A stretch of DNA of 16,599 nucleotides from a virus. Taxonomy: Duplodnaviria; Heunggongvirae; Uroviricota; Caudoviricetes. Shown one piece after another: positions 127 through 16,342 of the stretch. The notes under the pieces are model-generated. The model ran no database searches and was not told where the DNA came from. It was given only the letters and a program-made list of their open reading frames with translations. The number at the start of each line of letters is the position of its first letter. Within the stretch, counting starts at the first letter, position 1. The translations under genes were made by a program, and so were the position numbers. The stretch is from IMG/VR virus record IMGVR_UViG_2734482537_000002; one strand, 5' to 3'.

Positions 127-675
127 TCAGCGACCAATCACCACAACCTGACCACCGTCCCCTTCGTCTGCCGTGCTGATCTCCTGAGATACCACACGTG
201 ACCCCACGCGCATTTCACCATACAGAACAGGCATAACATTGCCCTGGGCAACCATGTTATCCAGTGAGGAGAAATAGGTGTTCTGCTTACCGTTATCCGT
301 TGTCTGTGTGCGGGGAGTTCTGGCTTTCGGTGCCAGCATCTGAGCCACACCGCCGAGCACCATACTGGCACCGAGAGAAAACAGAATGCCGGTCATACCA
401 CCGGCACCAATGGCAGCCCCCCATGCTGCAAGGGTGGCTCCGGCGGTAAAGAATGATCCGGCAATGGCGGCTGCTCCCAGGACAATCTGGAATACACCAC
501 CTGACTTGGCCCCGGCGACTCTGGGAACAATATGAATCACAGCGCCGTCAGGCAGAGCCTCATGTAACTGTGCCGTTAATCCGGACGTGCTAACATCCTG
601 CCCGGCAATACGCACCTGATACCAGCCGTCGCTCAGCTTCTGACGAAACGCAGGGAGCTGTGTGGCCATCGCCCG
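127..675 (-). CDS. I: Tail assembly protein I, C-terminal 182 codons; N-terminus lost in the N run
   Basis: ORF 127..669 translation (MATQLPAFRQKLSDGWYQVRIAG ... GGQVVVIGR) matches the C-terminal part of lambda gpI from memory. The frame stays open up to the N run at 676. The true start, about 40 codons upstream, is not visible. Confidence 0.88.
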   Translation of the reverse strand, partial: RAMATQLPAFRQKLSDGWYQVRIAGQDVSTSGLTAQLHEALPDGAVIHIVPRVAGAKSGGVFQIVLGAAAIAGSFFTAGATLAAWGAAIGAGGMTGILFSLGASMVLGGVAQMLAPKARTPRTQTTDNGKQNTYFSSLDNMVAQGNVMPVLYGEMRVGSRVVSQEISTADEGDGGQVVVIGR

Positions 676-6891: not shown

Positions 6892-7466
6892 CGCTTTATT
6901 ACCATTCTCAGTTGATGCTGCAGCGCATAGCCCAGCTCTTTCGGAAGACGTTCACGCCGTATCCGTTCAATATTCTGTTTAAACGCCGTGGTCAGCGGCA
7001 CCGCCATCGGGATTTTCACCACATCAATGGGGTAACGGTTTTTCCCGGCCACACGCTGCATAACATGCCACCGGCCGTTTTTCAGTTGCTGAATAAACGC
7101 GCCGGGAATACGACGGTTACCCACCACAAGCACGCTGCCGCCACCTTTCAGGGATGAACGCTGCCCCTTTTTATGACGCCTGCGGCGGGACAGGACAACC
7201 CGCGCATTACCCAGCTTGATTACGGGCAAATCCCCCCGGTTAACTTTGATTCTGGCCTGCGGATTTTTGACCGTGGCCCTTTTCAGCCTGGCCCTTTCCT
7301 TTACCAGTTTCCGGCGTACCTTTGTCTCACGGGCAACCTGTGACGCAGACTGCGATATCGCGGATGAAGCAACGCGGTTAATGGCCATTGCGGCGGCACC
7401 GGGCACCGCCGTTTTGCTGATACGGCTGAGGTTTTCAACGGCCTGCTCAAGACCTTTTATGGCCAT
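6888..7466 (-). CDS. Z: Tail completion protein Z
   Basis: 192-aa ORF, ATG at 7466..7464. Translation MAIKGLEQAVENLSRISKTAVPGAAAMAINRVASSAISQ matches lambda gpZ from memory. Confidence 0.95.
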   Translation of the reverse strand: MAIKGLEQAVENLSRISKTAVPGAAAMAINRVASSAISQSASQVARETKVRRKLVKERARLKRATVKNPQARIKVNRGDLPVIKLGNARVVLSRRRRHKKGQRSSLKGGGSVLVVGNRRIPGAFIQQLKNGRWHVMQRVAGKNRYPIDVVKIPMAVPLTTAFKQNIERIRRERLPKELGYALQHQLRMVIKR

Positions 7467-11025: not shown

Positions 11026-14706
<3,681 letters not shown>

Positions 14707-14732
<26 letters not shown>

Positions 14733-15252
14733 TCAGCAACCCCGGTATCAGTTCATCCAGCGCGGCTGCTTTGTTCATGGCTTTGATGATATCCCGTTTC
14801 AGGAAATCAACATGTCGGTTTTCCAGTTCCGGAAAACGCCGCTGCACCGACAGGGGGATCCCGTCGAGAATACTGGCAATTTCACCTGCGATCCGCGACA
14901 GCACGAAAGTACAGAATGCGGTTTCCACCACTTCAGCGGAGTCTCTGGCATTTTTCAGCTCCTGTGCGTCGGCCTGCGCACGCGTAAGTCGATGGCGTTC
15001 GTACTCAATAGTCCCTGGCTGGAGATCTGTCTCGCTGGCCTGCCGCAGTTCTTCAACTTCCCGGCGCAGCTTTTCGTTCTCAATTTCAGCATCCCTTTCG
15101 GCATACCATCTTATAACGGCGGCAGAGTCATAAAGCACCTCATTACCCTTGCCACCGCCTCGCAGAACGGGCATTCCCTGTTCCTGCCAGTTCTGAATGG
15201 TACGGATACTCGCACCGAAAATGTCAGCCAGCTGCTTTTTGTTGACTTCCAT
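14707..15252 (-). CDS. Nu1: Terminase small subunit Nu1 (cosB-binding)
   Basis: 181-aa ORF, ATG at 15252..15250. Translation MEVNKKQLADIFGASIRTIQNWQEQGMPVLRGGGKGNEVLYDSAAVIRWYAERD matches lambda gpNu1 from memory. Confidence 0.96.
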
Positions 15253-15277
15253 TGTTCATTCCACGGACAAAAACAGA

Positions 15278-15332
15278 GAAAGGAAACGACAGAGGCCAAA
15301 AAGCCCGTTTTCAGCACCTGTCGTTTCCTTTC
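15278..15332. repeat. cosB R2/R1 pair: perfect 15-bp inverted repeat, the Nu1 binding elements
   Basis: gaaaggaaacgacag at 15278..15292 and its exact reverse complement ctgtcgtttcctttc at 15318..15332, separated by 25 bp. This corresponds to the lambda R2/R1 arrangement (established knowledge). Confidence 0.8.
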
Positions 15333-15371
15333 TTTTCAGGGGGTGTTTTAAATAAAAACATTAGGTTACGG

Positions 15372-15389
15372 CGAAGAAGAACGGAAACG
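15372..15389. promoter_or_regulatory. cosB R3-like element
   Basis: cgaagaagaacggaaacg, whose reverse complement CGTTTCCGTTCTTCTTCG matches the lambda R3 region from memory. The A/T-rich stretch 15341..15371 between it and R2 is where the IHF site I1 lies in lambda. Confidence 0.6.
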
Positions 15390-15429
15390 CCTTAAACCGG
15401 AAAATTGTCATAAATAGCGAAAACCCGCG

Positions 15430-15441
15430 CGCCTTCCGCCC
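15430..15441. promoter_or_regulatory. cosN core (position of the 12-nt cohesive end), variant relative to lambda
   Basis: Window reads cgccttccgccc where lambda, in this orientation, is aggtcgccgccc (reverse complement of GGGCGGCGACCT). Flanks on both sides match lambda. 5 of 12 positions differ, all in one half. Confidence 0.7.
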
Positions 15442-15640
15442 CGTAACCTGTCGGATCGCCGGAAAGGACCCGCAAAATGATAATAATTATCATCTACATG
15501 TCACAACGTGCATCTACGCCATCAAACCACGTCAAATAATCAATTATGACGCAGGTATCGTATTAATTGATCTGCATCAACTTAACGTAAAAACAACTTC
15601 AGACAATACAAATCAGCGACACTGAATACAGGGCAACCTC

Positions 15641-15874
15641 ATGTCAACGAAGAACAGAACCCGCAGAACAACAACCCGCAACATCCGCTTTCCTAACCAA
15701 ATGATTGAACAAATTAACATCGCTCTTGTTCAAAAAGGGTCCGGGAATTTCTCAGCCTGGGTCATTGAAGCCTGCCGCCGGAGACTGTGCTCAGAAAAAA
15801 GAGTTTCGCCTGAAGCAAACAAAGAAAAGAGTGACATTACTGAATTGCTCAGAAAACAGGTTAGACCAGATTGA
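15641..15874 (+). CDS. Small ribbon-helix-helix-like (Arc/CopG-type) putative DNA-binding protein; N-terminal two thirds lambda-like, C-terminus divergent
   Basis: 77-aa ORF, ATG at 15641. The pattern NIRFP (beta strand), NQMIEQINIALVQKG (helix), SGNFS (turn), AWVIEACRRRL (helix) fits the RHH fold. The N-terminal part matches the small cos-adjacent ORF at the lambda right end from memory. Transcribed opposite to the late operon. Confidence 0.6.
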   Translation: MSTKNRTRRTTTRNIRFPNQMIEQINIALVQKGSGNFSAWVIEACRRRLCSEKRVSPEANKEKSDITELLRKQVRPD

Positions 15875-15931
15875 AGCAATTTAGATAATCGTGCAGACTA
15901 CGCCCCCTCATATCACATGGAAGGTACTACA

Positions 15932-16342
15932 ATGGCTCAGGTTGCCATTTTTAAACAAATATTCGATAAAGTGCGAAATAATTTAAACTATCACTGGTTT
16001 TATTCTGAACTAAAACGTCACAATGTCTCACATTACATTTACTATTTAGCCACAGAGAATATTCATCTTGTTCTTGAAAACGATAATACGGTTTTAATAA
16101 AAGGACAGGGTAAGGTTGTAAATGTAAGATTTTCAAAAAATAAATGCCTTATAGAAGCCACCTTAAAAGGATTCAAATCAGGAGAGTTATCATTTTACGA
16201 ATACAGGAAAAATCTTGCTACAGCAGGGGTTTTCAGATGGATTACAAATATCCACGAAAACAAAAGGTATTACTATACCTTTGATAATTCATTACTCTTT
16301 ACTGAGAACATACAGAACACTACACAAATATTTCCGCACTAA
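15932..16342 (+). CDS. Hypothetical protein, 136 aa, strongly AT-rich; non-lambda cargo (moron-like)
   Basis: Open frame 15917..16342. The second ATG at 15932 has a GGAAGG ribosome binding site 7 nt upstream. GC content is visibly far below the structural genes. No recognisable catalytic or transmembrane motifs. Possibly related to small DLP12-type prophage proteins of E. coli (memory only, unverified). Confidence 0.55.

Follow-up and report, generated by a model that had tools for sequence, protein, structure and literature searches.

Known variation at lambda-like cohesive ends

The two halves of the lambda cohesive-end site, cosN, respond very differently to mutation. Changes at bp 7–12 have very little effect, but the symmetric changes on the left side have severe consequences (Xu & Feiss 1991, summarised in Feiss et al. 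2015, PMC4669245). The published data on tolerance at bp 7–12 come from single and few-base changes. The left half is reported to be under selection (PMC4669245). This asymmetry between the half-sites arises from the anchoring of TerL via TerS bound at cosB (PMC4669245). Natural differences in the right half have been described as "common"; relative to lambda, bp 9 and 12 are changed in N15 and phiD326, and bp 8, 9, and 11 in Gifsy-1 (PMC4669245). Lambda TerL cuts cosN-lambda and cosN-N15 equally well, and the 2-bp mismatch formed by lambda and N15 cohesive ends lowers the viable yield about fourfold (PMC4669245). In the rest of the site, the 7-bp cosQ is highly conserved, and the flanking CG dinucleotides at both nick positions are conserved among cos sites (PMC4669245).

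The cos site described here lies in a stretch of viral DNA of 16,599 nucleotides (IMG/VR record IMGVR_UViG_2734482537_000002), called the window below, and corresponds to the left arm of a lambda-like prophage that runs in reverse. The cohesive-end 12-mer reads GGGCGGAAGGCG in lambda orientation (CGCCTTCCGCCC on the plus strand at 15430–15441), and the N15 12-mer reads GGGCGGCGTCCG. As in N15, phiD326, and Gifsy-1, the cosN of the window differs from that of lambda within bp 7–12 only, and the left half, the flanking CGs, and cosQ are kept; with N15 it also shares the G at bp 12. It carries five changes, however, compared with two or three in those phages, and it has a true lambda-type terminase and a cosB with three R sites, whereas N15 uses its own TerS and TerL and a simple cosB. 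Judged by its sequence, the allele appears to fit as a more extreme member of the known class of right-half variants. When full texts were searched for GGGCGGAAGGCG, the only matches were unrelated plant and Streptomyces papers, with no paper on phages among them.

We consider it very probable that the window holds a natural, heritable allele of the lambda cohesive end, i.e., a complete cosQ–cosN–cosB site with AAGGCG in place of CGACCT at bp 7–12 that is predicted to be cut by an ordinary lambda-type terminase.

Organization of the variant cos site

The window cosN was aligned without gaps to the annotated cos of phage DE3 and to bp 1–12 of lambda (NC_001416). The elements of the site are listed from the cosQ side to the cosB side.

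15465–15471, minus strand: cosQ heptamer GGGTCCT, at -30 to -24 from the left nick as in lambda, with no indel
15442–15443, minus strand: 5'-CG-3' outside the top-strand nick (lambda bp -2, -1), conserved
15430–15441, minus strand (lambda orientation): cosN cohesive-end 12-mer, with bp 1 at 15441 and bp 12 at 15430
15436–15441, minus strand: left half of cosN (bp 1–6), GGGCGG, same as lambda
15430–15435, minus strand: right half of cosN (bp 7–12), AAGGCG versus CGACCT in lambda, holding all five differences
15428–15429, minus strand: 5'-CG-3' outside the bottom-strand nick (lambda bp 13–14), conserved
15377–15392, minus strand: cosB R3 (lambda bp 50–65), AGGCGTTTCCGTTCTT, same as lambda, with the cosN–R3 spacing unchanged and gapless
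15253–15392, minus strand: whole cosB region to the Nu1 start codon, with scattered differences from lambda/DE3

The GGGTCCT heptamer, which we take to be cosQ, corresponds to lambda bp 48473–48479. The extent given for R3, bp 50–65, is that of PMC9026076.

In an ungapped alignment of the 391-bp cos region, lambda/DE3 and the closest isolated relatives of the window (PhiR63_1, 2H10, and Turner) all read GGGCGGCGACCT. The window departs from this 12-mer at 5 of 12 positions, cohesive-end bp 7, 8, 9, 10, and 12 (window 15435, 15434, 15433, 15432, and 15430), while bp 11 is the same in both; every difference thus falls in the cosB-proximal right half. A preliminary description of this DNA had reported five differences clustered in one half-site, and the alignment agrees on both points. 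It had also allowed that the lambda reference might in fact read like the window; the lambda sequence it gave proved to be correct, so this way out is closed.

Such a cluster is beyond chance, given that the window and lambda are 97.4% identical over 14.5 kb and that only about 0.001 clusters of at least five mismatches per 6 bp are expected at this identity. Across the same 14.5 kb there are just two other patches of at least five mismatches in six, inside FI and H. The FI patch lies at the equivalent of lambda 7225–7242 and the patch in the tape-measure gene H at the equivalent of lambda 12873–13020, and both look like short mosaic or hypervariable segments.

The nick context in the window is ...TTACG/GGGCGGAAGGCG/CGCGGG, with both flanking CG dinucleotides kept. 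On the cosB side, the differences from lambda/DE3 are single bases at bp 35, 71, 73, 78, 97, 102, 134, and 137, with none in R3 bp 55–63. The likeness to lambda thus takes in the architecture and spacing of the site, cosQ, cosN bp 1–6, the flanking CGs, and R3, together with 17 collinear morphogenesis genes, and the difference lies at bp 7–12. The preliminary description had called the surrounding cos lambda-identical. This is accurate for the defined functional elements, but the 391-bp region as a whole is just 94.1% identical to lambda and 96–97% identical to the other isolated lambda-like phages.

One way to read five clustered substitutions is that they abolish bottom-strand nicking, in which case this would be the packaging-defective cos of a cryptic prophage and the allele would persist through vertical inheritance of the prophage. 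The sheer extent of the change speaks for such a defect, as five of the six right-half positions are altered, exceeding any variant named in the literature, and the twofold rotational symmetry of the 16-bp cosN drops to 8 of 16 bp from 10 of 16 in lambda and N15. Against it, every element of the site known to matter is intact. The state of the packaging genes and the occurrence of the allele in other elements, taken up below, also bear on this reading, which we judge improbable.

Terminase and morphogenesis genes

The genes that adjoin the cos site on its two sides are as follows.

15917–16342, plus strand: DUF1398 gene, on the cosQ side of cos, on the strand opposite the late genes
15641–15874, plus strand: YlcI/YnfO (DUF3950) gene, directly on the cosQ side of cos, on the strand opposite the late genes
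14707–15252, minus strand: Nu1, small terminase subunit, 181 aa, 98.3% identical to lambda Nu1 (Pfam Phage_Nu1, E = 2.4e-101)
12807–14732, minus strand: A, large terminase subunit and cosN-nicking enzyme, 641 aa, 99.4% identical to lambda gpA (Pfam GpA_ATPase and GpA_nuclease)

The Nu1 start is at cos position 190 in the window versus 191 in the lambda reference, and gpA differs from its lambda counterpart at four residues. These identities confirm the close match of the Nu1/A terminase to lambda that had been noted initially. Beyond A come W, B, C, D, E, FI, FII, Z, U, V, G, T, H, M, and L, reaching about position 1319. The 17 genes of the Nu1–L block all have their full length, show 94–100% amino-acid identity to lambda, and contain no stops or gaps, so the head and tail genes of the window offer nothing to the idea of a defective element. 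In 43 of the 47 variant loci that have a 181–182-aa lambda-type Nu1 and an A frame whose stop codon lies in the fetched DNA, gpA is full-length (638–641 aa). The proportion of intact terminase genes is no higher at canonical sites, which argues against decay of the packaging function.

The far end of the window, at about 130–1310, covers the lambda K–I region. The window contains no DNA that matches lambda 14516–14896; only residues 1–80 of lambda K can be aligned, and the alignment of lambda I begins at residue 42. The open reading frames there (633–1310 and 127–669, minus strand) are intact but of different length, and the K/I junction is therefore read as a mosaic replacement.

A changed cosN could also be matched by a changed enzyme. 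Under this alternative, the allele would represent a new nicking specificity that co-evolved with an altered terminase endonuclease, and the discreteness of the allele, with few intermediates (9 versus 84 AAGGCG), can be cited in its favor. The terminase sequences tell otherwise. A search of 41 variant-linked and 38 canonical-linked gpA/Nu1 pairs for a gpA or Nu1 residue associated with the allele found none. Identity of gpA between the two classes is 99.1%, compared with 99.0% and 99.2% within them, and four gpA and four Nu1 sequences are identical between variant and canonical classes, meaning that the same proteins are found with both alleles. Published TerL data likewise show no discrimination between right-half sequences (PMC4669245). 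A co-evolved specificity is accordingly very improbable in our assessment, and the diversity of small subunits found with AAGGCG (see below) points the same way.

Recurrence of the allele

The variant was searched for with a 37-mer probe that could be seeded by variant-bearing DNA only, and a matching canonical probe was run alongside. The exact allele is present in 155 of 5,426 complete E. coli genomes, including ETEC H10407, at 166 places, of which 150 are chromosomal and 16 are on plasmids. The canonical probe found 7,413 places in 4,101 complete E. coli genomes, 19 of them on plasmids. Within these complete genomes, the variant therefore makes up 2.0% of lambda-type cos sites on chromosomes (150/7,544) versus 46% on plasmids (16/35), an enrichment with an odds ratio of 41.5 (Fisher's p = 4e-18).

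Other collections also hold the allele. About 80 IMG/VR contigs carry the same 12-mer, and six IMG/VR loci match the window exactly from -60 to +72 around the site. In PLSDB there are 23 variant plasmids, from E. coli, E. albertii, E. fergusonii, and Shigella sonnei. A scan of species-representative genomes with a flank-pattern search gave a single match, in Escherichia sp. E1V33. Among 50,697 phage records, two deposited genomes have the allele, PhiR46_1 and YDC107_1.

A sequencing or assembly error, which the preliminary description had proposed for this GC-rich site, is refuted by this recurrence of an identical 12-mer across hundreds of independent assemblies. The base composition of the site is the one thing in favor of an error, and it stands against 155 complete E. 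coli genomes, some 80 IMG/VR contigs, and 23 plasmids from unrelated projects, plus the six loci whose flanks are identical to the window from end to end of the compared interval. We give an error essentially no weight.

The variant 12-mer is invariant over 31 left-flank and 13 right-flank haplotypes. A defective site inherited passively with a prophage is hard to square with a sequence that has shown no decay over so many backgrounds. A seemingly strong association of the variant with left-flank SNPs was discarded as an artefact, because the left flank had been kept constant when the canonical sample was gathered.

The canonical lambda cos 37-mer has a distribution of its own in PLSDB, where it is also found in "plasmids" of non-enterobacterial hosts, several of them lambda-sized (~48.5 kb). 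Examples are NZ_CP068597.1 from Paenibacillus sonchi (48,499 bp), NZ_CP104294.1 from Stenotrophomonas maltophilia (48,499 bp), and NZ_CP082339.1 from Salmonella enterica (48,502 bp). Further records with the canonical 37-mer are CP036489.1 from Rahnella aquatilis (49,310 bp), NZ_CP104070.1 from Alicyclobacillus fastidiosus (39,760 bp), and HM037272.1 from Bacillus thuringiensis (109,464 bp). Such "plasmids" are most likely lambda control or spike-in DNA that was assembled and deposited.

N15-like phage-plasmids and chromosomal prophages

The plasmids that carry the variant are of a recognizable type. In PLSDB, 21 of the 23 plasmids with the variant have a gene for a protelomerase, whose identity to the pEC21Z151-46K enzyme is 83% or more. 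Both phage records are of this type as well: PhiR46_1 (PV340565.1) has an annotated telL site and lists ECOR13 as its host, and YDC107_1 is classified in Ravinvirus. From the host field of its record, PhiR46_1 is presumed to be infectious. From the 46% share of plasmid-borne sites, the protelomerase genes, and the nature of the two phage records, it follows that AAGGCG is the usual cohesive end of Escherichia N15-like phage-plasmids with a lambda-type packaging module.

PhiR46_1, YDC107_1, and pEC21Z151-46K, all linear phage-plasmids of the Ravinvirus type, have the same 12-mer and the same type of Nu1/A as the window. They differ from it in the genes beside cos, where the window has a lambda-like arm with the YlcI/DUF3950 and DUF1398 genes. 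A chromosomal prophage of E. coli strain 582 has the same DUF3950 and DUF1398 arrangement beside cos as the window, and the gene neighborhood of the window is that of a chromosomal lambdoid prophage.

This distribution cuts both ways for the suggestion that the window holds a cryptic prophage whose cos cannot be packaged. No integrative lambda-like phage isolate with the allele exists among the 50,697 phage records, both carriers being phage-plasmids, as might be the case if the allele were carried along in defective prophages. The allele is nevertheless usual on N15-like phage-plasmids, one of which was deposited as a phage genome with an indicator strain as its host. With the conserved cos elements and all of the head and tail genes present intact, the defective prophage offered in the preliminary description is unlikely. 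The variant cohesive end that it listed as another option gains support from the recurrence of the allele, the intact packaging modules, and the confinement of the changes to the mutation-tolerant half. Since the allele is natural, recurrent, and placed within the half that tolerates change, the most likely reading of the window cos is a site that works in packaging, and not a defective or misassembled one.

Packaging classes and intermediate alleles

In IMG/VR, the right half AAGGCG was counted 84 times. Intermediates are rare: 4 CAGGCG, 3 CAGACG, 1 CTGACG, and 1 CGACCG.

The AAGGCG core is found with three different classes of small subunit and cosB. The first class has lambda-type Nu1. The second is made up of 18 variant loci with a non-lambda right flank (GGGGAAAATCATG...) and a cosB of their own. 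Their 181-aa TerS shares 83% identity with Nu1 but diverges in the N-terminal DNA-binding domain, and a lambda-like TerL comes after it. The divergent N terminus of this TerS may be phage-21-like. Cos sites of PICI satellites were considered for these 18 loci and ruled out by the 181-aa Nu1-like TerS and the lambda-like TerL. The third class has an unrelated 175-aa TerS (MNKKNMAKSCRVSATAFDKWGV...) that starts about 160 bp from cosN, and it has the lambda left half and the first ~22 bp past cosN in common with lambda. By right half, the loci of the third class are divided as follows.

AAGGCG: L148, L158, L198, and L204
CAGACG: L156, L160, and L192
CTGACG: L201

The pairing of one core with three TerS/cosB classes is a further argument against a co-evolved nicking specificity. 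Because no terminase residue tracks the allele and AAGGCG is found with all three classes, the cohesive-end sequence appears, at the sequence level, to behave as an exchangeable segment and not as half of a co-evolved enzyme–site pair.

Two individual cases deserve mention. In L089 (IMGVR_UViG_2778261513_000005), the 12-mer reads GGGCGACGACCT, with bp 6 changed from G to A, the sole left-half cosN variant in about 120 sampled sites with canonical flanks. It could be a genuinely impaired cos, as published genetics predict harm from left-half changes. In addition, two AAGGCG cos sites (L171 and L179) are found on one 56,122-bp metagenome contig, IMGVR_UViG_3300045988_113976, where their listed orientations are opposite. 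Two elements lying side by side could account for this, as could a misassembly.

Proposed cutting and annealing of variant ends

The natural allele described here suggests a simple scheme for packaging. Nu1 would bind the unchanged R3, R2, and R1 sites of cosB and position gpA. The bottom-strand nick made by gpA would fall between bp 12 and 13, and its top-strand nick immediately ahead of bp 1. The variant site should be open to cutting by an ordinary lambda-type terminase, since bottom-strand nicking is set by cosB anchoring, not by a reading of bp 7–12. The predicted products are 12-nt 5' overhangs of sequence GGGCGGAAGGCG that would anneal to each other as stably as lambda ends. With DNA nearest-neighbor parameters, predicted self-annealing is -18.6 kcal/mol for variant ends versus -19.0 kcal/mol for lambda ends, and the GC content of the 12-mer is 10/12 in both. 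Hybrid ends are a different matter. A lambda end and a variant end pair through bp 1–6 only, at about -9.5 kcal/mol by the same nearest-neighbor calculation, compared with about -15 kcal/mol for a lambda/N15 hybrid. With 6 of 12 bp paired, chromosomes that have one end of each cos type should circularize poorly.

These considerations lead to a broader proposal, which is possible but which we hold only tentatively. In it, GGGCGGAAGGCG would be a second, mutually incompatible class of cohesive end in Escherichia lambda-like elements. This class would be characteristic of N15-like phage-plasmids and would have reached about 2% of the lambda-type cos sites on chromosomes by introgression.

Implications

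The allele extends the documented natural variation of lambda cohesive ends from two or three changes to five of the six right-half positions. Variation on this scale supports the view in the literature that cosB anchoring, rather than sequence reading, governs the nicking of the bottom strand. There are also practical consequences for genome annotation. Tools for annotation or terminus prediction that look for GGGCGGCGACCT will overlook variant sites, and prophages with a variant cosN should not be labeled as cos-defective on a missing GGGCGGCGACCT alone.

If the proposed second class of cohesive ends is real, a hybrid lambda/variant chromosome would leave a flap at the bottom-strand nick, and circularization would fail in single-crossover recombinants and in chromosomes whose packaging began at one cos type and ended at the other. 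The right half of cosN would then partly block genetic exchange between phages that are otherwise 97% identical, and the small number of intermediate alleles would reflect selection to match the common types. Should hybrid ends indeed be unable to circularize, the allele would mark a compatibility boundary that matters for lambdoid recombination, for cross-packaging in polylysogens, and for cosmid and helper-phage systems.
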